DNA of 64,000 nucleotides from Eledone cirrhosa (Eukaryota). Positions within the stretch are counted from its first letter, which is position 1. Each line of letters starts with the position of its first letter. Shown one piece after another: positions 23,939 to 57,950 of the stretch. The DNA lies in contig OZ024743.1 in assembly GCA_964016885.1 (NCBI GenBank), forward strand, positions 222,208,001 to 222,272,000, in the 5' to 3' direction. The position numbers and the translations under genes are program-made. The notes under the pieces are model-generated. The model did no database searches. It had not been told where the DNA came from and was given only the letters and a program-made list of their open reading frames with translations.

Positions 23939-24560
23939 TTCTATAATATAAAACTGTTTGTTTTAACCCTTATCATACCAAACTGCAGCCCCTAATTCTA
24001 TAATATAAAACTGTTTGTTTTAACCCTTATCATACCAAACTGCAGCCCCTAATTCTATGATACAAAACTGTTTGTTTTAACCCTTATCATACCAAACTGC
24101 AGCCCCTAATTCTATGATACAAAACTGTTTGTTTTAACCCTTATCATACCAAACTGCAGCCCCTAATTCTATGATACAAAACTGTTTGTTTTAACCCTTA
24201 TCATACCAAACTGCAGCCCCTAATTCTATGATACAAAACTGTTTGTTTTAACCCTTATCATACCAAACTGCAGCCCCTAATTCTATAATATAAAACTGTT
24301 TGTTTTAACCCTTATCATACCAAACTGCAGCCCCTAATTCTATGATACAAAACTGTTTGTTTTAACCCTTATCATACCAAACTGCAGCCCCTAATTCTAT
24401 GATACAAAACTGTTTGTTTTAACCCTTATCATACCAAACTGCAGCCCCTAATTCTATGATACAAAACTGTTTGTTTTAACCCTTATCATACCAAACTGCA
24501 GCCCCTAATTCTATGATACAAACTATTTGTTTTAACCCTTTTGATACCAAACTGCATGAA
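23939..24560. repeat. 57-bp tandem repeat (~10-11 copies) derived from the MITE family A left end
   Basis: Unit AAAACTGTTTGTTTTAACCCTTATCATACCAAACTGCAGCCCCTAATTCTATGATAC; period 57 (23951, 24008, 24065). Confidence 0.93.
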
Positions 24561-30274: not shown

Positions 30275-32773
30275 CACAACAGCAACAACACCATAGCATC
30301 TACAACAACAACACCATAGTATCTACAACACCATAGTATCTACAACAACAAAACCAACAACACCATAGCATCTACAACAACAACACCATAGTATCTACAA
30401 CAACAAAACCAACAATACCATCTACAACAATACCATCTACAACAACACCAACAACATCATAGCATCTACAACAACAACATAGCATCTACAACAACAACAA
30501 CAGCAACAACACCATAGCATCTACAACAACAACAGCAACAACACCATAGCATCTACAACAACAACACCAACAACACCATAGCATCTACAACAACAACAGC
30601 AACAACAACAGCAACAACACCATATCATCTACAACAACAACACCAACAACACCATAGCATCTACAACAACAACACCAACAACACCATAGCATCTACAACA
30701 ACACCACCATAGTATCTACAACAACAACACCAACAACACCATAGTATCTACAACAACAACAACAACATCATAGCATCTACAACAACAACACCATAGCATC
30801 TACAACAACAACATAGCATCTACAACAACAACAACACCAACAACACCATAGCATCTACAACAACACCACCATAGTATCTACAACAACAACACCAACAACA
30901 CCATAGTATCTACAACAACACCAACAACACCATAGTATCTACAACAACACCAACAACACCATACTATCTACAACAACACCAACAACACCATAGCATCTAC
31001 AACAACAACACCATAGTATCTACAACAACAACACCATAGCATCTACAACAACAACACCATAGCATCTACAACAACAACACCATAGCATCTACAACAACAA
31101 CAACAACAACAACACCATAGCATCTACAACAACAACAGCAACAACACCATAGCATCTACAACAACAACACCATAGCATCTACAACAACAACAGCAACAAC
31201 ACCATAGCATCTACAACAACAACACCAACAACACCATATCATCTACAACAACAACAGCAACAACACCATAGCATCTACAACAACAACAGCAACAACACCA
31301 TATCATCTACAACAACAACAGCAACAACACCATATCATCTACAACAACAACACCAACAACACCATAGCATCTACAACAACAACACCAACAACACCATAGC
31401 ATCTACAACAACAACAACAACAACACCATAGCATCTACAACAACAACAGCAACAACACCATAGCATCTACAACAACAACACCATATCATCTACAACAACA
31501 ACACCAACAACACCATAGCATCTACAACAACAACACCAACAACACCATAGCATCTCCAACAACAACACCATAGCATCTACAAAAACAACAGCAACAACAC
31601 CATAGCATCTACAACAACAACAGCAACAACACCATATCATCTACAACAACAACACCAACAACACCATATCATCTACAACAACAGCAACAACAACACCATA
31701 GCATCTACAACAACAACACCAACAACACCATAGCATCTACAACAACAACAACAACACCATAGCATCTACAACAACAACAACAACACCATAGCATCTACAA
31801 CAACAACACCAACCACACCATAGCATCTACAACAACAACACCAACAACACCATAGCATCTACAACAACAACACCAACAACACCATAGCATCTACAACAGC
31901 AACACCAACAACACCATAGCATCTACAACAACAACAACAACACCATAGCATCTACAACAACAACACCAACACCATAGCATCTACAACAACAACACCAACA
32001 ACACCATAGCATCAACAACAACAACACCAACAACACCATAGCATCTACAACAACAACACCATAGTATCTACAACAACAACACCAACAACACCATAGTATC
32101 TACAACAACAACAACAACAACACCATAGCATCTACAACAACAACACCAACAACACCATAGCATCTACAACAACAACACCAACAACACCATAGCATCAACA
32201 ACAACAACAGCAACAACACCATAGCATCTACAACAACACCACCATAGCATCTACAACAACAACACCAACAACACCATAGCATCTACAACAACAACAGCAA
32301 CAACACCATAGCATCTACAACAAGAACACCATAGCATCTACAACAACACCATAGCATCTACAACAACAACACCAACAATACCATAGTATCTACAACAACA
32401 ACACCAACAACACCATAGCATCTACAACAACAACACCAACAACACCATAGCATCTACAACAACAACAGCAACAACACCATATCATCTACAACAACAGCAC
32501 CAACAACACCATATCATCTACAACAACAGCAACAACAACACCATAGCATCTACAACAACAACAACAACACCATAGCATCTACAACAACAACACCAACAAC
32601 ACCATAGCATCTACAACAACAACACCAACAACACCATAGCATCAACAACAACAACAGCAACAACACCATAGCATCTACAACAACAACACCATAGTATCTA
32701 CAACAACACCATAGCATCTACAACAACAACACCAACAATACCATAGTATCTACAACAACAACAGCAACTACCA
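30275..32773. repeat. 2.5-kb compound satellite: CATAGCATCTA interspersed with (CAA)n/CAC/CAG runs
   Basis: Directly visible. Confidence 0.96.
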
Positions 32774-41105: not shown

Positions 41106-41979
41106 GTATCAATTCGTTCGTTAATTTTTTAAGGCAATAGTGTGTTTTATTATGATACAACAAATATATAAGATTAAAATAGAAATACATACCTACAATC
41201 AATTAATTATAGCTAGGAACCTTATAAATATAATACACAAACGTTTTAATGTTACACTTAAGTACATATACATTTTTGCTTTCACCCCCCCCCCCTTTTT
41301 TTTTTTAGTTATAATCGTTTAATTAACACTGCCTTTACATCGGCTCAGCTGGTTATACTTTCACTTCAATATAGAAAGAAATCTTCTAGGATGTTGCCGC
41401 TTCCAGAACATAGCCGTATCTTTATTTTGTTACACAAATAACGTTACAAATTGTTTATAATTCTTACAGAATGAAAATATAAACACAAATAATATATACA
41501 ATTAATTATTGCTTGGAACTTCACAAACACAATGTCTATTTTCGAAGACTAACTAGCGTATATCATATATGAACAAAATCTCACACAATAAAAGATAAAC
41601 ACAATCTATTTATTGTTGTTTTTTATGTAGTTAACAGTACTTTATTTTATATTTAAGAAAAACTTTAGAGAACTTTAGAGAATTTATTATGATATAACAG
41701 ATATATTAGACTAAATAGAAGTACATATATATAATCAATTAATTATAGCTAGAAACCTTATTACTATAATACACAACAAATATATTTATTGCTCACAATT
41801 CTTGTAGAATGAAAATATAAACATATATAACAAATACAATTAACTATTGCTAGGAACCCCACAAATACAACCCACCAAAATATATGACTAGAGCGAGAGA
41901 AATAAATAAAAAGGGGGGAAAGAAAAATTACCACCAATTCACTAGCATGCGCGACAATCGACTGCACATCACAAGGATC

Positions 41980-44518
41980 TTTAGCAGTATTAGTTATTAT
42001 TGTAGTCGCCACTTTAACAGGGTAGATGATTGAAGGTCGTTAGTTGCCAGTGTGGTAAGTGATAGTATCCTCGTTGGGTTATCTTGTTGACATAGACGTG
42101 AGGGAAGGTCCCTCGATCTATTTACCATCTATTTACAATATTCCTTTCGTCAGGTCGCCAATTCCAGCAGCATGGATTATAGATTTCATTGAGACACGAG
42201 TAACATAACGATTTCAACAGCAGTAATTAGAGATGAAATGTTTGTTTATTTATATGGTTGAAGTTACAGATACAAAGAGGTTACAAAAGGGAATGTGCCG
42301 TTGCACCGTTAAGCCGGCGAGGCTAGGGTGCAAATCTCACCGTTACATTATGCGTGTTGCTGGCTTGAAGTTTCCGGTACAAGAGAGAGATTCTTCAAAT
42401 CTTCGCGGGGAATTTCTTCCTCAGGGCGCGTAGGGATACATCCTCTTCTACTGGCGCTGATTGGCTGAACTGAGCCAAATCACGCACAGAGAATGTATGT
42501 GAGCCCGCGGAATGTAGGTCACTACATCACCTCCAACCAGATTTTCAGCCGAAAATCGATAACGAAGAAACCAAGGACCCACATATTACTGAATCAGCAA
42601 GAACAAATGCTGAAAGAGCACATCAGTGAAAAAATAATTGAGCAGAACGATTCATGCAAGAACAAAAAATAAATTAGGCGCGACGGGCCGTGTTGAGCCG
42701 CTGTCAAATGACTAGCTGTTTTGTAGTTTAAACGAGACCCTCAAGGGCCTACCAGAAAACAGATAAAGTCTGACATGGGCGAAGTTGCTGTTCTTGCATT
42801 AAATGTTAATGGTAAGCGTTGTACCAGTAGCTGTGAACGAAGCTATTATGGTAGTTTACCAGTGCTGGCGAGAAAATGATGGCCCCCAGATGTATTGTCG
42901 AATGTGCTGTGGAGCCAGGAAAAAATGACTGGTTGCTTTGTAAAGAAAAAAAGGCAAGTTTAATCTGTAGGTGGGTTGCAGTGTAAATTCCATAATTCGG
43001 GCGAATCCACAGAAGTGGCTGAAATATTGACAAGTCCAGTTCAATTTGTTGCCTTCCCAGCGAGTCGGGCAAAAACAACAAGACGGATGGCCGTCATGGA
43101 CGATCAGTGTGCAACGAGATGCGAAGCTGTTTGAGTTCAGCTGCAATTAGAATTCTCGTGTTGCGGTGCCTGTTTGAATCCAATGGATTAAGCTCTGTGA
43201 GCTGCTAGCATGTGACAGCATCTCAACCAGGTGAAAAGGGACTCGCAGAATATTACGTTTGAAGAACATATACCAAGAACAACATGTTGGTGTGTGATAA
43301 AAAAAATGTGTGCATATGCAGGCATGTAAAACAGCAAAGAATGTAAATGAACAAAAACCATGAGCAAACAAATAGCAAAAGAGCACAAAACAAGCAAATG
43401 CATTCTACAAAGAAATATGTGAATGTAACAAACTGATAATTCAAAGTCAATCTAAGGGAGCAGAGAAATTGCTCAATAAGTTCAAAGTTTTTCAAAGTCA
43501 AATAGTTCACACATCACCAGTGTACAGACACTAGTTCTATCTGAAAACTGAAAAAGAAGTTTGTTAATGCCTTTAGGGATTAGATGTATTCTCGAGTCCC
43601 TGTGGTAACGAGACAGAAGGTATGGTGGTTGCGTCGGTAAAGTTACAAGCCGTTTTGAAATTTCCGATGTGTGGTGGTTTGCGTCGGTAAGGCTATGAAG
43701 CTGCCACTCACTGTTCCCTGTTTTGGTCAGTGGCTAAACAATGTTGTCGCTGCTGCTGCTGTCTTTGTTGATCGAAGACAGGACTTGTCGGTAGCCATTT
43801 TGAAATTTCTTCGTGGCGAAAAATTTTTGAAATACTGCTAATTTTTCAAAAATCTTAAAAGGAATATTTTTTTATTTTCGCAAGTTGCGAAAAGGTTGGA
43901 AACGTGGCAATAAAAGTTCAACTGAATGAAAAAGAAGGGCTGCGTAAAATTCTTACGTCGGTCACCACTTTAGCAGTTATTGGTTATAGAGTAGTCGCCA
44001 CTTTAACAGGGTAGATGATTGAAGGTCGTTAGTTGCCAATGTGGTAAGTGATAGTATCCTCGTTGGGTTATCTTGTTGACATAGACGTGAGGGAAGGTCC
44101 CTCGATCTATTTACCATCTATTTACAATATTCCTTTCGTCAGGTCGCCAATTCCAGCAGCATGGATTATAGATTTCATTGAGACACGAGTAACATAACAA
44201 CGATTTCAACAGCAGTAATTAGAGATGAAATGTTTGTTTATTTATATGGTTGAAGTTACAGATACAAAGAGGTTACAAAAGGGAATGTGCCATTGCGCCG
44301 TTAAGCCGGCGAGGCTAGGGTGCAAATCTCACCGTTACATTATGCGTGTTGGTGGCTTGAAGTTTCCGGTACAAGAGAGAGATTCTTCAAATCTTCGCGG
44401 GGAATTTCTTCCTCAGGGCGCGTAGGGATTCATCCTCTTCTACTGGCGTTGATTGGCTGAACTGAGCCAAATCACGCACAGAGAATGTATGTGAGCCCGC
44501 GGAATGTAGGTCACTACA
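41980..44518 (-). mobile_element. Non-autonomous Gypsy-like LTR retrotransposon, copy A (LTRs 41980-42526 and 43969-44518; TSD GATC)
   Basis: Two ~550-bp direct repeats; GATC at 41976-41979 and 44519-44522. Minus-strand LTR runs TGTAGTGAC...CTGCTAAA. PBS-like GTGGTGACCGACGT follows the 5' LTR; purine-rich GGTTGGAGGTGA precedes the 3' LTR; AATAAA lies within the LTR. Confidence 0.88.
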
Positions 44519-44615
44519 GATCAATGGAATATTTTGAGAAAATCCAATAAACTCGCAGCATTACCACGAGTGATGGCGATGCTAAGGTGCTGTAACAACC
44601 AGACACCCTCACGGG
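44519..44615 (-). mobile_element. Piece of a CRE-type 3' fragment that was the target of both LTR insertions (continues at 47305-47365 and left of 41979)
   Basis: Removing both LTR elements restores SSLAARLTAVSGDTREGVWLLQHLSIAITRGNAASLL on the minus strand. Confidence 0.75.
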
Positions 44616-47304
44616 TTTAACAGGTATTAGTTGTAGATGTTATCGCCACTTTAGCGGGGTGGTAGAATCAGTGGTCGTTAGTTGCCAGTGTGGTAAGTGA
44701 TAGTATCCTCGTTGGATTATCTTGTTGACATAGCCGTGAGGGAAGGTCCCTCGATCTATTTACCATCTATTTACAATATTCCTTTCGTCAGGTCGCCAAT
44801 TCCAGCAGCATGGATTAAAGATGTCATGGAGACACGAGTAACATAACAACGACTTCAACCGCAGTAATTAGAGATGAAATGTTTGTTTATTTATATGGTT
44901 GAAGTTACAGATACAAAGAGGTTACAAAATGGAATGTGCCATTGCGCCGTTAAGCCGGCGAGGCTAGTGGTGCAATATCTCACTGTTACATTATGCGTGT
45001 TGCTGGCTCGAAGTTTCCGGTACAAGAGCGAGATTCTTCAAATCTTCGCGGGGAATTTCTTCCTCAGGGCGCGTAGGGATACATCCTCTTCTACTGGCGC
45101 TGATTGGCTGAACTGAGCCAAATCACGCACAGAGAATGTATGTGAGCCCGCGGAATGTAGGTCACTACATCACCTCCAACCAGATTTTCAGCCGAAAATC
45201 GATAACGAAGAAACCAAGGACTCACATATTAAATCAGCAAGAACAAATGCTGAAAGAGCACATCAGTGAAAAAAATAATTGAGCAGAAGGTTGCATGCAA
45301 GAACAAAAAATGAGGCGCTACGGGCCGTGTTGAGCCGCTGTGTCAAATGACCAGTTGTTTTGTTGTTTATACGTGACCGCCAAAGGTCTAACAAAAATCG
45401 GATAAAGTCTGACATGGGCGAAGTTGCTGTTCTTGCATTAAATGTAAATGGTAAGCGTTGTACCAGTAGCTGTGAACGAAGCTATTATGGTAGTTTACCA
45501 GTGCTGGCGAGAAAATGATGGCCCCCAGATGTATTGTCGAATGTGCTGTGGAGCCAGGAAAAAATGGCTGGTTGCTTTGTAAAGAAAAAAAGGCAAGTTT
45601 AATCTGTAGGTGGGTTGCAGTGTAAATTCCATAATTCGGGCGAATCCACAGAAGTGGCTGAAATATTGACAAGTCCAGTTCAATTTGTTGCCTTCCCAGC
45701 GAGTCGGGCAAAAACAACAAGACGGATGGCCGTCATGGACGATCAGTGTGCAACGAGATGCGAAGCTGTTTGAGTTCAGCTGCAATTAGAATTCTCGTGT
45801 TGCGGTGCCTGTTTGAATCCAATGGATTAAGCTCTGTGAGCTGCTAGCATGTGACAGCATCTCAACCAGGTGAAAAGGGACTCGCAGAATATTACGTTTG
45901 AAGAACATATACCAAGAACAACATGTTGGTGTGTGATAAAAAAAATGTGTGCATATGCAGGCATGTAAAACAGCAAAGAATGTGAATGAACAAAAACCAT
46001 GAGCAAGCAAATAGCAAAAGAGCACAAAACAAGTAAATGCATTCTACAAAGAAATATGTGAATGTAACAAACTGATAATTCAAAGTCAATCTAGGGGAGC
46101 AGAGAAATTGCTCAATAAGTTCAAAGTTTTTCAAAGTCAAATAGTTCACACATCACCAGTGTACAGACACTAGTTCTGTCCGAAAACTGAAAAAGAAGTA
46201 TGTTAATGCCATTAGGTGTATGGTGTTTTTGTGAGATTTCGTGGCCATTTTCCCGTCCCGCCACACGGTTGTGTTGCTTCTTGTTAAAACAAAGTCAAAG
46301 AATCTTCTGTAGAGTAGGAGTCACCAAATATGGCAGTCACGTCTGACGGCATAATGGTGAGAAAACAACTGTCTCAATTTCTCGCGTCCCTGTGGTAACG
46401 AGACAGAAGGTATGGTGGTTGCGTCGGTAAAGTTACAAGCCGTTTCGAAATTTCCGATGTGTGGTGGTTGGCGTCGGTAAGGTTATGAAGCTGCCACTCA
46501 CTGTTCCCTGTATTGGTCAGTGGTTAAACAACGCTGTCGCTGCTGCTGTCTTTGTTGTTGTCAAGCGTAGCCATGACATGTCGGTAGCCATCTTGAAATT
46601 TTTTTCGTGGCGAAAAAGTTTTTGAAATACTGCTAATTTTTCAAAAATCTTAAAAGGAATATTCTGGATTTTCGCAAGTTGCGACGTGGCAATAAAAGTT
46701 AAACTGAATGAATAAGAAGGGCTGCGTGATATTCTTACGTCGGTCACCACTTTAACAGGTATTAGTTGTAGATGTTATCGCCACTTTAGCGGGGTGGTAG
46801 AATCAGTGGTCGTTAGTTGCCAGTGTGGTAAGTGATAGTATCCTCGTTGGATTATCTTGTTGACATAGACGTGAGGGAAGGTCCCTCGATCTATTTACCA
46901 TCTATTTACAATATTCCTTTCGTCAGGTCGCCAATTCCAGCAGCATGGATTAAAGATGTCATGGAGACACGAGTAACATAACAACGACTTCAACCGCAGT
47001 AATTAGAGATGAAATGTTTGTTTATTTATATGGTTGAAGTTACAGATACAAAGAGGTTACAAAATGGAATGTGCCATTGCGCCGTTAAGCCGGCGAGGCT
47101 AGTGGTGCAATATCTCACTGTTACATTATGCGTGTTGCTGGCTCGAAGTTTCTGGTACAAGAGCGAGATTCTTCAAATCTTCGCGGGGAATTTCTTCCTC
47201 AGGGCGCGTAGGGATACATCCTCTTCTACTGGCGCTGATTGGCTGAACTGAGCCAAATCACGCACAGAGAATGTATGTGAGCCCGCGGAATGTAGGTCAC
47301 TACA
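44616..47304 (-). mobile_element. Non-autonomous Gypsy-like LTR retrotransposon, copy B (LTRs 44616-45169 and 46751-47304; TSD CGGG)
   Basis: Two 554-bp near-identical LTRs; CGGG at 44612-44615 and 47305-47308. Same PBS/PPT as copy A; internal region nearly identical to A plus extra sequence at ~46215-46380. Confidence 0.9.
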
Positions 47305-48018
47305 CGGGTATCACCTGAGACCGCGGTAAGGCGAGCCGCCAACGATGACAAGAACTTCGCTGCATGGTAGTGAGACATGTGTAGCAAGTGCGGAGGATAT
47401 GCGAAGGCTGGAGAGAAATAAAGCAATTAGCTCCGATGGATGTGCAATATCAATCTGCGTGAACGACCAAGCATGGACGATTTGAGAGAGAAACTATATA
47501 AGAGGAATAAATTGTAGTGTGCAGGAGAGAAGACTACGTTGGCATGGCCATGTGATGTGCATGGATGATGACCGCTGGGTGAAGAAATGTCAGGTAATCC
47601 CAGTGGAGGGTAGACGTAATAGAGGAAGACCACGGAAAACATGGGCGAAGGTGGTGAGAGCTGACCTCAGATCGCTGAAGCTCACAGAGGAGATGACGAA
47701 GGGCCGTGACAAACGGAGAGATGCTGTACTGAAGAGGACGTAAAATGATGACGAAGATGATGATGAACTATATAAGATTAAATAGAAGTACATACGTATA
47801 ATCAATTAGTTATTGCTAGGAACCGTATTACTACAATACTCAACAAATATATGTATTGTTTTTAATATAGCTAATATTATGAAATATGATTTACTTGATA
47901 AAGTATAAACTAAAACTATATTTTCAGATTTTCTATTATTATTGTTTTTAATATGTGGGATTTTGTCATGGATTCATCATGGATAGGTATTAAATTGTTT
48001 CGTTTCTTTTATTGAGTG

Positions 48019-48680
48019 CTAACTGAGGTACCCAGCTTGGCCCAGGTAAACCGATGATAAGAGAAGACCAGTAGAAGAGAAAACAAATGTATTGCGTGCG
48101 TTGTCTGGTTTACAGATTCTTCGTTTTACTGTTTGTAAATGAAGATTTCTAGATGTTCCTGTGAACAACCTACATATAACTGTCTATGAGTAAAAACCGA
48201 TTCTCTCATATTCAATCCTACAACTTTGAGACTGACCCTTGAGCTTTATTTATGGTCATAGCAAAACTGGCTCTAACAGGGAACTGAAGTCTTGAGAATC
48301 TGAATGGTAGCTCGGTAGAGGAAGGGATAAGAGGAATCTTGGGAATAAATGCAATTTTTCCTTGATTGCCTCCAAGAATAGGGACCTCTAGGATATGGTT
48401 CATCAGCAGCCTGACTGTTAAGCGTGTGCCTTTTTATAAACGTTGCGGGTCCAGGTTTCTAAAAACGGTGATGGGAGTTCCAATCTTTAGCGTCAATTTG
48501 TGTGGAGGAAGTTCAGGGGTTCCAGACTATTAAGGAACTCTGCGGGATAATTAACAACTTCACCATCCTCTTCAACCTTGTCAATGGAGACATATGTAGA
48601 AATCTTCCCTGGGAGCATATCCTGTAGGCATTGGTTGATCTGATTTACCATATTATTTGGGGCCGCAAACACCCTGCTTT
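48019..48680 (-). mobile_element. Helitron PIF1-helicase C-terminal remnant with hairpin-like 3' end
   Basis: PPHKLTLKIG..RNLDP, IPKIPLIPSSTELPFRFSRLQFPVRASFAMTINKAQG. Imperfect hairpin ACCTGGGCCAAGCTGGGTACC then TTAG near 48020. Confidence 0.82.
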
Positions 48681-48779: not shown

Positions 48780-49440
48780 AGACAAAGGAAGGGAGAAGGG
48801 GGGAGGTTGACAGACTCTACACCTGGGTTAGATGAGTGTTTCGGCTGCGCTCCGCGGACAAAATGGATAAGGCATTTCTACGGACAATGGCCAACGACAC
48901 ATGCTGCAACAACCACACCACCTCGCGGGTTCCTTCCTCAGGCGGGCTGCTATCGATCTGATTTTACGGAGGAAATCAGCTGTCTGTGGTCCGAGGTCAT
49001 CTGAGGTCTCAACGGCGACCGGTGCAAAGAGAAAGGGGCCAGACAAACTCCCTCCTCTGCATTGTGAACCACGGTACTGGGATTTGTGGTCGAGAACGTC
49101 TAACAGCATGTCGCATCCCAGATGAGGGATTTACCTCCTTCAAAAAGGAAGATGGTAATTCCGCCGGGGCGCTTGTCATCACCACGATCGAGGACTACTA
49201 GCTCCAGTTGTGACAGGAAGCCCGCTGCGTCGAGGCTCCATCTCATTATGTCGTTGAGAGTGGCCGCTCTGGCGGCATGATAATGGGTCAAGGCCGAACC
49301 CCACAACGGCATTTATGTGGCTCACACACGTGAAGGGCGAGGCGTTGAGCTACCTCGATGCGAGTGCACTCGTCATCAAGAAGGGCCCCGAATTGAGCTG
49401 CCAGTGATAACAAACGTCTCGAACACCACAGGCTGGAAAA
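48780..49440 (-). mobile_element. CRE-type non-LTR fragment (zinc knuckle + RLE), degenerate
   Basis: LNDIMRWSLDAAGFLSQLE..LDRGDDKRPGGITIF.F.GGKSLIWDATC, FAPVAVETS..LGP. Confidence 0.8.
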
Positions 49441-51280: not shown

Positions 51281-54200
51281 GACGTTACTAGACATTATTG
51301 GACGTTATTGGATTACTGGACATTGGTGGACATTACTGGACGTTAGTGGACATTGGTGGACATTACTGGACGTTAGTGGACATTGGTAGACATTACTGGA
51401 CGTTAGTGGATATTGAAAGACATTACTGGACGTTAGTGGACATTGCTAGACATTACTGGACGTTAGTGGACATTGATAGACATTACTGGACGTTAGTGGA
51501 CATTGGTAGACATTACTGGATGTTAGTGGACATTGATAGACATTGCATTACTGGACGTTACTAGACATTGGTAGACATTACTGGATGTTAGTGGACATTG
51601 ATAGACATTACTGGACGTTAGTGGACATTGGTGGACATTACTGGACGTTAGTGGACATTGGTAGACATTACTGGATGTTAGTGGACATTGGTAGACATTA
51701 CTGGATGTTAGTGGACATTGGTGGACATTACTGGATGTTAGTGGACATTGGTGGACATTACTGGACGTTAGTGGACATTGGTGGACATTACTGGACGTTA
51801 GTGGACATTGGTAGACATTACTGGACGTTAGTGGACATTGATAGACATTACTGGACGTTAGTGGACATTGGTAGACATTACTGGACGTTAGTGGACATTG
51901 ATAGACATTACTGGACGTTACTACACATTGGTAGACATTACTGGATGTTAGTGGACATTGGTGGACATTACTGGATGTTAGTGGACATTGGTGGACATTA
52001 CTGGACGTTAGTGGACATTGGTAGACATTACTGGACGTTAGTGGACATTGATAGACATTACTGGATGTTAGTGGACATTGGTGGACATTACTGGATGTTA
52101 GTGGACATTGATAGACATTACTGGACGTTAGTGGACATTGATAGACATTACTGGACGTTAGTGGACATTGGTGGACATTACTGGATGCTAGTGGACATTG
52201 ATAGACATAACTGGACGTTAGTGGACATTGGTGGACATTACTGGATGTTAGTGGACATTGGTAGACATTACTGGACGTTAGTGGACATTGGTAGACATTA
52301 CTGGACGTTAGTGGACATTGATAGACATTACTGGACGTTAGTGGACATTGATAGACATTACTGGATGTTAGTGGACATTGATAGACATTACTGGACGTTA
52401 GTGGACATTGATAGACATTACTGGACGTTAGTGGACATTGGTGGACATTACTGGATGTTAGTGGACATTGGTGGACATTACTGGATGTTAGTGGACATTG
52501 GTAGAAATTACTGGACGTTAGTGGACATTGGTAGACATTACTGGACGTTAGTGGACATTGATAGACATTACTGGACGTTAGTGGACATTGATAGACATTA
52601 CTGGATGTTAGTGGACATTGATAGACATTACTGGACGTTAGTGGACATTGGTGGACATTACTGGATGTTAGTGGACATTGGTAGAAATTACTGGACGTTA
52701 GTGGACATAGGTAGACATTACTGGACGTTAGTGGACATTGATAGACATTACTGGGCGTTAGTGGACATTGGTAGACATTACTGGATGTTAGTGGACATTG
52801 ATAGACATTACTGGACGTTAGTGGACATTGGTGGACATTACTGGACGTTAGTGGACATTGGTGGACATTACTGGACGTTAGTGGACATTGATAGACATTA
52901 CTGGACGTTAGTGGACATTGATAGACATTACTGGACGTTAGTGGACATTGGTGGACATTACTGGACGTTAGTGGACATTGGTGGACATTACTGGACGTTA
53001 GTGGACATTGGTGGACACTACTGTATGTTAGTGGACATTGGTGGACATTACTGGATGTTAGTGGACATTGATAGACATTACTGGACGTTAGTGGACATTG
53101 GTGGACATTACTGGATGTTAGTGGACATTGGTGGACATTACTGGACGTTAGTGGACATTGGTAGACATTACTGGACGTTAGTGGACATTGATAGACATTA
53201 CTGGACGTTAGTGGGTATTAGTAGAGATTACTGGATGTTAGTGAACATTGGTGGACATTACTGGACGTTAGTGGACATTAGTAGACATTACTGGATGTTA
53301 GTGGACATTGGTGGACATTACTGGACGTTAGTGGACATTGGTAGACATTACTGGACGTTAGTGGACATTGGTAGACATTTCTGGATGTTAGTGGACATTG
53401 GTGGACATTACTGGACGTTAGTGGACATTGATAGACATTACTGGATGTTAGTGGACATTGGTGGACATTACTGGACGTTAGTGGACATTGGTAGACATTA
53501 CTGGATGTTAGTGGATATTGGTGGACATTACTGGACGTTAGTGGACATTAGTAGACATTACTGGATGTTAGTGGATATTGGTGGACATTACTGGACGTTA
53601 GTGGACATTAGTAGACATTACTGGATGTTAGTGGACATTGGTGGACATTACTGGACGTTAGTGGACATTGGTAGACATTACTGGACGTTAGTGGACATTG
53701 GTAGACATTACTGGATGTTAGTGGACATTGATAGATATTACTGGACGTTAGTGGACATTGGTAGACATTACTGGATGTTAGTGGACATTGATAGACATTA
53801 CTGGACGTTAGTGGACATTGGTAGACATTACTGGACGTTAGTGGACATTGGTAGACATTACTAGACGTTAGTGGACATTGGTAGACATTACTGGATGTTA
53901 GTGGACATTGATAGACATTACTGGACGTTAGTGGACATTGGTAGACATTACTGGACGTTAGTGGACATTGGTAGACATTACTAGACGTTAGTGGACATTG
54001 GTAGACATTACTGGATGTTAGTGGACATTGATAGACATTACTGGACGTTAGTGGACATTGGTAGACATTACTGGACGTTAGTGGACATTGGTAGACATTA
54101 CTAGACGTTAGTGGACATTGGTAGACATTACTGGATGTTAGTGGACATTGATAGACATTACTGGACGTTAGTGGACATTGGTGGACATTACTGGATGTTA

Positions 54201-55216
54201 GTGGACATTGGTGGACATTACTGGACGTTAGTGGACATTGATATACATTACTGGATGTTAGTGGACATTGGTGGACATTACTGGATGTTAGTGGACATTG
54301 GTGGACATTACTGGACGTTAGTGGCCATTGGTGGACATTACTGGACGTTAGTGGACATTGGTAGACATTACTGGATGTTAGTGGACATTGGTGGACATTA
54401 CTGGACGTTAGTGGACATTGGTGGACATTACTGGACGTTAGTGGACATTGGTGGACATTACTGGATGTTAGTGGACATTGGTGGACATTACTGGACGTTA
54501 GTGGACATTGGTGGACATTACTGGACGTCAGTGGACATTGATAGACATTACTGGACCTTAGTGGATATTGATAGACATTACTGGACGTTAGTGGACATTG
54601 CTAGACATTACTGGACGTTAGTGGACATTGGTAGACATTACTGGACGTTAGTGGACATTGGTAGACATTACTGGACGTTAGTGGACATTGCTGGACATTA
54701 CTGGACGTTAGTGGACATTGGTGGACATTACTGGACGTTAGTGGACATTGGTGGACATTACTGGACGTTAGTGGACATTGGTGGACATTACTGGACGTTA
54801 GTGGACATTGGTGGACATTACTGGACGTTAGTGGACATTGGTGGACATTACTGGACGTTAGTGGACATTGATAGACATTACTGGACGTTAGTGGATATTG
54901 ATAGACATTACTGGACGTTAGTGGACATTGCTAGACATTACTGGACGTTAGTGGACATTGGTAGACATTACTGGACGTTAGTGGACATTGGTAGACATTA
55001 CTGGACGTTAGTGGACATTGGTGGACATTACTGGACGTTAGTGGACATTGGTGGACATTACTGGACGTTAGTGGACATTGGTGGACATTACTGGACGTTA
55101 GTGGACATTGGTGGACATTACTGGACGTTAGTGGACATTACTGGATGTTAGTGGACATTGGTGGATATTACTGGACGTTAGTGGACATTGGTGGACATTA
55201 CTGGACGTTAGTGGAT
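51281..55216. repeat. ~3.9-kb minisatellite, 30-bp unit built from three related 10-mers (GACATTACTG-GAYGTTAGTG-GACATTGRTR), ~130 copies
   Basis: Directly visible; a degenerate seed lies at ~50055-50125. Confidence 0.97.
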
Positions 55217-55750: not shown

Positions 55751-57085
55751 CTAGCAGAAAACTGCCCAAAAGGCGGTTCTTCTGCCTTTTGGGCAGTTTT
55801 CTGCTAGTATATTGATATACGAAAATATATATCCACGTAGATATAATACATAAATTGATAATATGCACGTAAACTGAACAAAGACTGTGTTACACTTATT
55901 TCTGTAATCAGTAAAGTAATCCATGATACATTTAAAAAAAAAAGGCAATAATCGAGATGGAAAAGCGATGAAACTGTTGACGGAAAATGTCCATGAATCT
56001 TCTCTTGAGAATGTCGATGGGAAGCTTCGAGCAGTGAATTTGAAAATAGATGCTGCTGGTATGAATGAATGAATTACATTTACCAATATGAAGAGTTGAT
56101 CTTCGCTATATTGTTGTTTTACTGTATTCACATATAGACTTCTTAGGTTTTTGTAATGTCCCTTTTCTAGCAGTTGAAAAGTAACTGGAATGCATTTCAA
56201 CTAAAAGAGAGTGATAGCTGTTTCACATCGCTGTAGAATTTCTTTGTAGACACAGTTGTCTGCAAACAGATCCCTTTCATTTAATATTTATATATTTTCT
56301 TTTTTTGTAACTCGTGATAATGCAACATACATCTGACCATGTGAGAAGAATTGTGTTGGTAGATATACACCTATCTTTTCAAATGTCTGCCCTTGTGCCT
56401 TGTTGCATGTAAGGGCAAAGGCTGGTTTGATAGGAAATTGCTTGCGAGTAAAGGTGAAAGGGAACTCAAGCTCTTGAGATACATGTGGTATCCTTGGGAT
56501 TAGCAACCTTGTTCCAGCATTGGACCCAGTGCCACTTCAGCTTCAATTACATGATTATGTAAACTGATGATGTTGTAGCGTATACCATTGCAATGCCCGT
56601 TTAGAGGATCCAGATTTCTCAGAAGCATGATGCAACTGCCTTTTTTCAGTTTAAGTATGTATGTTGGGAAGCCTGATGGGGTAAGTTTGTTGATGAACTC
56701 AATTGGATATTGCAATTCATTATCTACTTTCAAATCCCGCCGAGGTTAACTTTGCCTTTCATCCTTATGGGATCGATAAAATAAAGTACCAGTAATGCAC
56801 TGGGTAATTGCTGGCCTTGTGCCAAAAAGTAGAAACAATTATCTACTGTATCAGAGCTCTGTAGATTATTTCATGACCAGGGAACTTGTTGACCATGAAC
56901 TCATTCACCAATCTTGCTGCATCATTTGTTGGAGTGATAGTGGCTCTATTTGCAGGCCATAGTGGGTTGGTGTAGTTTCCTGGAAGATTTGTATACACAA
57001 AATCACACAGTCCAGACACATTACCATATTCCAGACAAAGTTCGTTTGGCAGAAGAATTGTGAATGCAACAGTTGGAACAGTTGG
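55751..57085 (-). mobile_element. Helitron 3' part (PIF1 helicase remnant + terminal hairpin/CTAG), interrupted by a SINE
   Basis: RATITPTND..VNKFPG (56850-57080), YPIEFINKLTPSGFP..LLRNLDP..CNG, FTRKQFPIKPAFALTCNKAQGQTF..FSHGQMYVALSR. Palindrome CTAGCAGAAAACTGCCC..GGGCAGTTTTCTGCTAG at 55751-55807. Confidence 0.85.
56729..56840 (+). mobile_element. 5'-truncated Meta-domain SINE inserted in the Helitron helicase, TSD ATTATCTACT
   Basis: ATTATCTACT at 56719-56728 and 56838-56847. Confidence 0.85.
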
Positions 57086-57950
57086 ACCAGCTTTCGCGCA
57101 TGAGACTTACGGACCAGACTTCGCGCATGTGCAGTACGGATCAGACTTCGCGCATGCGCACTTCGGACCAGCCTTCGTGCATGCACACTTCGGATCAGCA
57201 TGCGCAGTACAGACCAGCCTTCGCGCATGTGTAGTACGGACCAACCTTCGCAAATGCGCAGTACGGACCAGCCTTCGCAAATGCGAACCTCAGACCACAA
57301 TTCGCGCATGCGCACTTCGGACCAGACTTCGCGCATGCGCAGTACCGACAAGTCATCGCGCATGTGCACTTTTGACAAGCTTTCGCGCATGCGCAGTACG
57401 GACCAGCCTTCAAGAATGCACTCTTCTGACCAGACTTCGCGCATCCGCACTTCGGCCCAGCCTAGCGCATGCGCAGTACGGACCAGCCTTCGCGCATGCG
57501 CACACGGACCAGACATCGCACATGCGCAGTACTGACCAGCCTTCGCGCATGCGCAGTACCGACCAGCCTTCGCACATGCGCAGTACGGACCAGCCTTCGC
57601 AAATGCGCAGTACGGACAAGCCTTCGCGCTTGCGCAGTACGGACCAGCCTTCGCGCATGCGCAGTACAGACCAGCCTTCGCACATGCGCAGTACGGACCA
57701 GCCTTTGCAAATGCGCAGTACGGACAGGTCTTCGCGCATGCGCAGTACAGACCAGCCTTCGCACATGCGCAGTACGGACCAGCCTTTGCAAATGCGCAGT
57801 ACGGACAGGCCTTCGCGCATGCGCACTTCGGACCAGACTTCGCGCATGCGCAGTACTGACCAGCCTTCGCATGTGTGCACTTTTGACAAGCCTTCGCGCA
57901 TGCGCAGTACGGCCCTGACTTCGCGCATGCGCACTTCGGACCAGACTTCG
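57085..57950. repeat. 27-bp CpG-rich minisatellite (CCAGCCTTCGCGCATGCGCAGTACGGA), ~30 copies
   Basis: Visible; ORF-track translations repeat every 9 aa. Confidence 0.95.

Follow-up and report, generated by a model that had tools for sequence, protein, structure and literature searches.

Repeated LTR-end modules in a putative non-autonomous CsRn1-like Gypsy family of Eledone cirrhosa, and their probable origin by out-of-register priming

A stretch of 64,000 nucleotides from the 3.0 Gb genome of Eledone cirrhosa (GCA_964016885.1, contig OZ024743.1, 222,208,001-222,272,000), here called the window and used as the coordinate system, contains two neighbouring long terminal repeat (LTR) elements of one family, whose LTRs end, next to the primer site, in a small array of repeated modules. 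Both are located on the minus strand, as are all their features given below. Element A (2.5 kb) spans 41980-44518, between copies of a 4-bp target duplication at 41976-41979 and 44519-44522, and element B (2.7 kb) spans 44616-47304, its own 4-bp duplication lying at 44612-44615 and 47305-47308. Each features TGT...AAA ends and a polypurine tract ahead of the 3' LTR (42527-42538 in A, 45170-45181 in B). The terminal primer-binding site, found at 43955-43967 in A and at 46737-46749 in B, is complementary to the transfer RNA (tRNA) tRNA-Trp(CCA), with a 2-nt gap; it adjoins the 5' LTRs only, as the first-pass annotation of this DNA had claimed. The longest internal frame is of 96 codons in A and 114 codons in B, and comparison with the Gag and Pol of the coding family described below gave no tblastn match at E 1. 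LTRs, primer site and polypurine tract are then present with no coding capacity, the combination that defines a non-autonomous LTR retrotransposon. Judging by their ends, primer site and 4-bp duplication and by the motifs of the coding family, the two elements are non-autonomous CsRn1-like Gypsy retrotransposons.

In all four LTRs the array is formed by a first unit, a single G and a second unit. In B, the 5' array (46751-46815) and the 3' array (44616-44680) show the same sequence when the LTRs are compared, and their second unit is composed of a 6-nt stub matching tRNA-Arg, a U5 tip of the type found in the coding family and the end motif. In A, the second unit of the 5' array (43969-44031) consists of a 7-nt tRNA-Arg stub, a tip and the end motif, while the 3' array (41980-42042) carries a different variant of it. 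Both variants recur letter-exact elsewhere, the 5' one in L107 and others, the 3' one in L087/L020. The repeat/spacer layout of the four ends and the five spacer strings, as previously described, were reproduced, and so was the period of 33-34 bp: the end motif falls at 44002 and 43969 in A (33 bp) and at 46785 and 46751 in B (34 bp). Taken by itself, the 9-nt end motif is no more frequent in the window than chance would have it (29 occurrences, 30.6 expected); the layout does exceed chance, as the count of a neighbouring anchor given below shows. The remainder of the LTRs had been said to differ only by scattered substitutions; these are there, together with two 1-nt indels and one of 3 nt. 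Spacers are G-poor, as noted at first sight, with 3.9% G in 70 distinct unit cores versus 18-21% in the LTR body. The 18-nt tips of 30 loci primed by tRNA-Trp, taken from all families, contain 11.7% G; on this compositional evidence, the low G of the unit cores is partly inherited from the U5 tips.

The family comprises at least 587 LTR copies, this being the number of exact genome matches of a 28-nt anchor located just upstream of the array (the reversed control gave 0); a DNA search returned 1,171 candidate copies. A census was taken on the first 100 anchor sites of contig C1, not picked by array content, which together with their partners amount to 106 LTR ends. Two units were found in 85 of them, three in 9 and one in 8, the other 4 being fused, odd or truncated (102 clean arrays). 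A four-unit array is present on another contig (L218/L241), and older relatives show a single unit, with short decayed pieces further upstream. Each unit is made of a primer-site stub, a U5 tip and a CTGYTAAA end; the modules are about 33 bases long (30-38 bp) and number from one to four per LTR end.

As many as 56 distinct array strings occur among 72 independent LTRs, and array divergence is about three to seven times that of the LTR body across distance classes (e.g. 0.097 vs 0.024, 646 pairs). The "hypervariable spacers" of the first-pass annotation are not borne out. Within the main subfamily, non-majority letters make up a fraction of 0.007 per site in spacer 1 and 0.050 in spacer 2. Both lie within the range of the LTR body, where the value is 0.021 and 18-nt windows have their 95th percentile at 0.058. 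Two haplotypes account for the first unit of 91 of the 106 ends (63 + 28). A single architecture is shared by 28 of the 72 independent LTRs and clusters on the tree of LTR bodies (7 changes vs 22.6 when shuffled), the other architectures being scattered; the motif-based labels placed on this tree mis-split at least two arrays. The same two units are found in both orders (L201 and L203 vs L204), and, depending on the array, the spacer typical of B takes the first or the second place. With few haplotypes and little spacer substitution within the subfamily, variation therefore affects whole modules: how many units there are, in which order they stand and with which stub each is combined. The alternative foreseen at the outset, namely stable haplotypes with a diversity not above that of the LTR body, thus holds in half, and what diversity remains comes from reshuffling a small stock of U5 tips, to which the tip of the coding family belongs. 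Error-prone initiation, which had been suggested as a source of diversity, is not needed.

LTR pairing on C1 produced 30 pairs, 26 of which have matching 4-bp target duplications, as both window elements do. Unit number or identity differs between the two LTRs in 7 of these 26 intact elements (L048, L062, L065, L066, L072, L116 and L120), and an eighth pair, L111, is discordant for two variants of one unit. Discordance runs both ways, as the longer array may sit in the 5' or in the 3' LTR. Pair L062 has one changed base in 488 in the body, but an entire unit sets its two arrays apart. In the 18 concordant pairs, hand-summed changes amount to about 20 events in 1,160 bp of array and 111 events in 8,880 bp of body, so that arrays change at about the body rate. 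Different spacers are found at the two LTR ends of L048, L072, L116 and window element A; since both variants of A occur in other insertions, two templates were used, and deletion cannot produce such pairs. In L227, where the target duplication is intact, the third unit of the 5' LTR begins with a 13-nt stub and the 3' LTR ends just before that stub, the pattern to be expected if priming had occurred at an internal tRNA-Arg stub; six other complete pairs, among 18 regions of the same set, have matching unit numbers. Together with the range of one to four units and the match of the stubs to a tRNA 3' end, these pairs uphold the earlier proposal that a cassette is exchanged or accreted at the priming site.

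Pairing of the terminal primer site with tRNA-Trp(CCA) extends over 13 nt with the 2-nt gap, and tRNA-Trp genes were found in the genome. Of 58 5' ends, pooled from loci partly outside the unbiased C1 sample, this short primer site is present in 47, the tRNA-Trp form in full in 7 and some other form in 4. A second box, complementary by sequence match to a part of tRNA-Trp further from its 3' end, lies in the leader (46715-46727 in B, 43933-43945 in A), and it likely extends primer pairing. At 13 of 13 positions, the longest array stubs are complementary to the tRNA-Arg(TCG) of this genome with CCA added; genes for this tRNA were also found. There are 32 such 13-nt stubs genome-wide (0 in the control), attached to at least five spacer types. 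The 3' ends of tRNA-Trp and tRNA-Arg(UCG) are identical at 14 of 18 positions. At the terminal site, the predicted duplex energy is -19.7 kcal/mol for tRNA-Trp and -18.3 for tRNA-Arg; with tRNA-Arg, values of -17.9 and -27.2 kcal/mol are obtained for the 7-nt and the 13-nt stub, both of which are accordingly predicted to be competitive tRNA-Arg sites. Among 20 ends with more than one stub, 19 have a distal stub that fits tRNA-Arg no better than does the proximal one, nearer to the primer site; one false parse and three mis-parses of flank or primer site are left out. Stubs of the TAA type could be accounted for by template switching with G-T wobble as well as by G-to-A editing.

Long tRNA-Trp tails were recorded at 71 sites; among the 30 examined, five belong to this family or to the coding one. 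In these five the tail continues into non-leader sequence, and two of them (L123 and L148) join the coding family to non-autonomous sequence, which suggests co-packaging. The 71 sites suggest that second strand transfer may be unreliable in this lineage. At L141, L142, L128, L133, L150 and L223, the tRNA-Trp copy following the LTR extends well beyond 18 nt, up to about 38 nt; plus-strand synthesis therefore at times passes its usual primer stop. At L019 and L135, an LTR and a full tRNA-Trp tail are directly followed by another LTR start of the family, the internal region being absent. L223 also holds a family LTR with a canonical ...ACA end before the primer site and a hybrid stub upstream. 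The unit stub of L075 is ambiguous: it could be a tRNA-Trp tail that has lost an internal piece, or else a tRNA-Arg copy of greater length with two mismatches. The region G000:C4:277407400-277441000 (L245, L246) contains eight clustered tRNA-Trp pattern matches, including four confirmed genes.

The coding family has LTRs of about 235 bp, in pairs 4.6-5.3 kb apart, and includes copies with gag and pol frames. Its Gag carries a CX2HX9CX3C motif; the overlapping pol frame shows protease, reverse transcriptase, RNase H and integrase motifs and a GPY motif, with no env and no chromodomain. Pfam identified DUF7041, RVT_1, RT_RNaseH, Integrase_H2C2 and rve, and nothing beyond ordinary Gag/Pol domains. 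It shares with the non-autonomous family the primer site, a leader of about 340 nt (75-81%) and part of the LTR, and is likely, on these similarities, its helper. The array is absent from all the 32 helper LTR ends listed. The main non-autonomous subfamily has as its terminal unit the commonest helper tip, of 26 nt and present in 13 of these 32 ends; this tip is letter-exact (26/26) in 9 of the 106 family ends. The remaining spacers look, by eye, like tips of older single-unit relatives. Such relatives were also considered as helpers: among those retrieved, the eight with a match to the element longer than 1 kb (L163-L170) are without a gag or pol frame. A degenerate older LTR end and primer site is buried in each window LTR (46920-46933 and 44785-44798 in B, 44136-44149 and 42147-42160 in A), about 130 nt upstream of the array. 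It is homologous to the LTR end, primer site and leader start of the helper, and the LTR has therefore grown at its primer end before.

Similar units are found in other families. A second one (74 hits), with LTR pairs about 5-6 kb apart, mostly carries one fixed unit, given by an end motif, a tRNA-Trp stub, 7 nt and another end motif, and one copy passes from the inner stub directly into a full primer site. Its primer site mostly has an extra T (L256-L261 and other hits) and is therefore also imperfect for tRNA-Trp; its U5 also holds the second tRNA-Trp box. A third family has a decayed unit (L122). Accretion thus recurs in this clade within this genome, and rapid unit turnover is seen in the non-autonomous family only.

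The explanation that we favour, with a probability of roughly 0.7, is that priming and strand transfer out of register, with two co-packaged RNAs, have built up and reshuffled the modules at the LTR ends of a non-autonomous CsRn1-like Gypsy element. Retroviral reverse transcription is known to follow standard steps by which tRNA sequence can be inherited into the primer site, as the available text of PMC4549124 has it. The terminal primer site would here be 2 nt short both for tRNA-Trp and for the near-identical tRNA-Arg(UCG), so that tRNA-Arg would occasionally prime and second strand transfer would be weak. With a weak primer site, open to two tRNAs and accompanied by look-alike stubs, nascent strands would pair out of register. 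A plus strand with a tRNA tail, or else a minus strand at a pause, would land on CGA/CGAC microhomologies that lie 20-30 nt deep in U5, in a co-packaged RNA either of the same family or of the helper, and the product would have one stub and one tip added at its primer-proximal end. Each stub would then be both a new priming site and a landing pad, and units could be lost too: the 3' LTR would come out shorter if priming took place at an internal stub, and the 5' LTR if the primer-site copy paired with a stub. As each unit ends in the integrase end motif, every product should still be able to integrate. Most probably, the array is a by-product that is tolerated and that also lets the element take up the current LTR tip of the helper.

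Several observations weigh against this explanation. The 20 multi-stub ends are not independent of each other. None of the 32 long stubs is followed by the leader, i.e. no terminal primer site of the tRNA-Arg type was seen among them, and all stop at nucleotide 13, so that one ancestral tRNA-Arg event followed by reshuffling fits equally well as repeated tRNA-Arg priming; moreover, the 13-nt stub and the tRNA-Trp copy differ at just two positions. The tree of the 72 LTR bodies is poorly resolved (9 of 69 branches supported) and too star-like to order events. The signal that two templates should leave, namely shared polymorphisms downstream of the TATA box, was seen in just 3 of 8 discordant pairs, as against 1 of 18 concordant ones (p = 0.07), and lends weak support. 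Finally, the discordance of L062, L065, L066 and L120, as well as L227, could be due to host deletions between repeats.

It is unlikely, in our estimate, that the array is a polarised acquisition cassette under selection, in which stubs would capture the tips of whichever helper packages the element, leaving an ordered record of tips and allowing two tRNAs to initiate at several sites. A related idea, which we regard as improbable, sees in the array a selected adapter, whose stubs are kept in order to acquire the integrase-proximal tip of the helper and as spare priming sites for the second tRNA; they could also reduce blocking by 3' tRNA fragments. The most expanded architecture, that of 28 of the 72 LTRs, does end in a helper-type tip, and the prevalence of the imperfect primer site (47/58) recalls imperfect primer sites of mouse endogenous retroviruses, which are read as trading priming off against silencing in the available text of PMC7472051. 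From the same text one would gather that the stubs match the last bases of the tRNA, and not the seed end of a tRNA fragment. The absence of the array from the helper ends listed, the fixed unit of the second family and the erosion of internal stubs also speak against an adapter. A sequence upstream of the array (46818-46831 and 44683-44696 in B, 44034-44047 and 42045-42058 in A) repeats the LTR end and the start of the primer site in inverted orientation. It is predicted to pair with them and to loop out the G-poor array, which would favour an adapter; the predicted folds are no better than those of shuffled sequences (z-scores 0.39 and -0.79, not significant), and the loop model is therefore a mere suggestion.

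No more probable than the adapter is a purely chromosomal history, by which a few old duplications made the units, and later host processes, i.e. slippage deletion between the 33-bp repeats and short gene conversion from other copies, shuffled them within the chromosomes, reverse transcription having no particular part in it. The predominance of two first-unit haplotypes and the common end of all long stubs would be explained, pairs differing by pure unit loss are consistent with deletion between homologies of 8-15 bp, and the LTR body has indels as well (11 events in 12.9 kb). On the other hand, the elements are young, with about 1.3% difference between LTR bodies, and in L062 and L111 the arrays differ despite just 1-2 body changes. 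Unlike spacers at the two ends would require a second template exactly at the LTR tip, and both the stub gradient and the helper-identical tip indicate that units were added where priming occurs. A dedicated diversifying or guide system, with spacers hypermutated or captured and steering, for example, insertion sites, has the repeat/spacer look, the varying unit number, the polarity and the many array strings in its favour, and is largely refuted and very improbable, given that spacer substitution in the main subfamily does not exceed that of the LTR body, as a hypermutated variable region would, that spacers trace to own and helper U5 tips, that only ordinary Gag and Pol domains are found, and these in the helper, and that spacers match 68 insertion flanks no better than shuffled ones (mean longest shared word 5.21 vs 5.27; 166 of 200 shuffles as high).

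As to the surroundings, elements A and B both interrupt one older interspersed repeat, and the three flanks of the elements (41700-41979, 44519-44615 and 47305-47360) match the same loci, L099 and L233. The whole-window repeat scan is dominated by a satellite. At 51285-55215 lies a satellite whose 30-bp unit, with a sub-period of 10 bp, is repeated about 130 times (93% matches). Other tandem arrays are located at 23939-24556 (57-bp unit), 30325-32691 (32-bp unit) and 57084-57950 (27-bp unit). Decayed coding-like remnants on the minus strand, at 48100-48650 and 48900-49400, resemble by eye a helicase of the Helitron type and a non-LTR retrotransposon's C-terminus.

The repeat/spacer look and polarised growth of the array recall CRISPR arrays and diversity-generating retroelements; unlike those, the family has no acquisition or mutator protein, no foreign spacers and no raised point-mutation rate. 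In soybean, LTR swapping between a non-autonomous element and its partner has reportedly taken place. In the family described here, LTR sequence is not replaced, and a tip of about 26 nt is added in tandem behind a tRNA stub.

Other parallels exist for single parts. The CsRn1 clade is characterized, in the available text of PMC2582038, by TGT...AAA or TGT...ATA ends, a 4-bp target duplication, a tRNA-Trp primer site and a CX2HX9CX3C Gag, and its end motif is tabulated for CsRn1, PwRn1 and AgCR (PMC3601003, Table 3). The elements and their helper share these ends, primer and duplication, as well as the Gag motif and the overlapping pol; they differ in the primer site, 2 nt short, and in the one to four modules at the U5 end, repeated units of end and primer site not being described in the portions available of either paper. 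Like the ta-TRIM/lennie element (PMC4558846, available text), the family is non-coding and has the same primer site, ends and length of target duplication as a coding one; non-autonomous elements with Gypsy partners appear also in the accessible part of PMC10886601. In HIV-1, a second, similar tRNA can prime and leave its own sequence in the DNA, and a 23-nt partial duplication of the primer site occurs in subtype A (PMC4549124, PMC3185550 and PMC11181671, as far as their available text goes). The HIV-1 duplication is single, downstream and outside the LTR, whereas here the copies lie inside the LTR, carry the integrase end and turn over. Template switching between RNAs has been proposed, in the available text of PMC4079214, for the multi-LTR complexes of Cassandra and Triticeae elements, in which a terminal structure is likewise duplicated with the target duplication intact; those complexes repeat whole LTR-internal blocks, in contrast with the junction module of 30-38 bp found here. 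In Drosophila, gypsy has two primer sites at opposite ends, according to the portion available of PMC1635307. A variable array of end and primer-site units inside LTRs was not found in the literature searched, which covered few subscription journals and no supplements. The array is real and, in this form, apparently undescribed, its parts being individually known.

LTR pairs are taken as identical at insertion, and this is the basis of LTR dating and of solo-LTR analysis; in this family, 7 of 26 intact insertions differ at the U5 tip. Hundreds of copies make it a natural record of primer choice, of errors in second strand transfer and of helper co-packaging, in an animal Gypsy clade with little biochemistry. 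A route is also indicated by which an LTR may grow at its primer end, and by which a non-coding element may gain the integrase end of its helper. If it were true that selection maintains the stubs, the array would be a new device by which a parasite tracks its helper.

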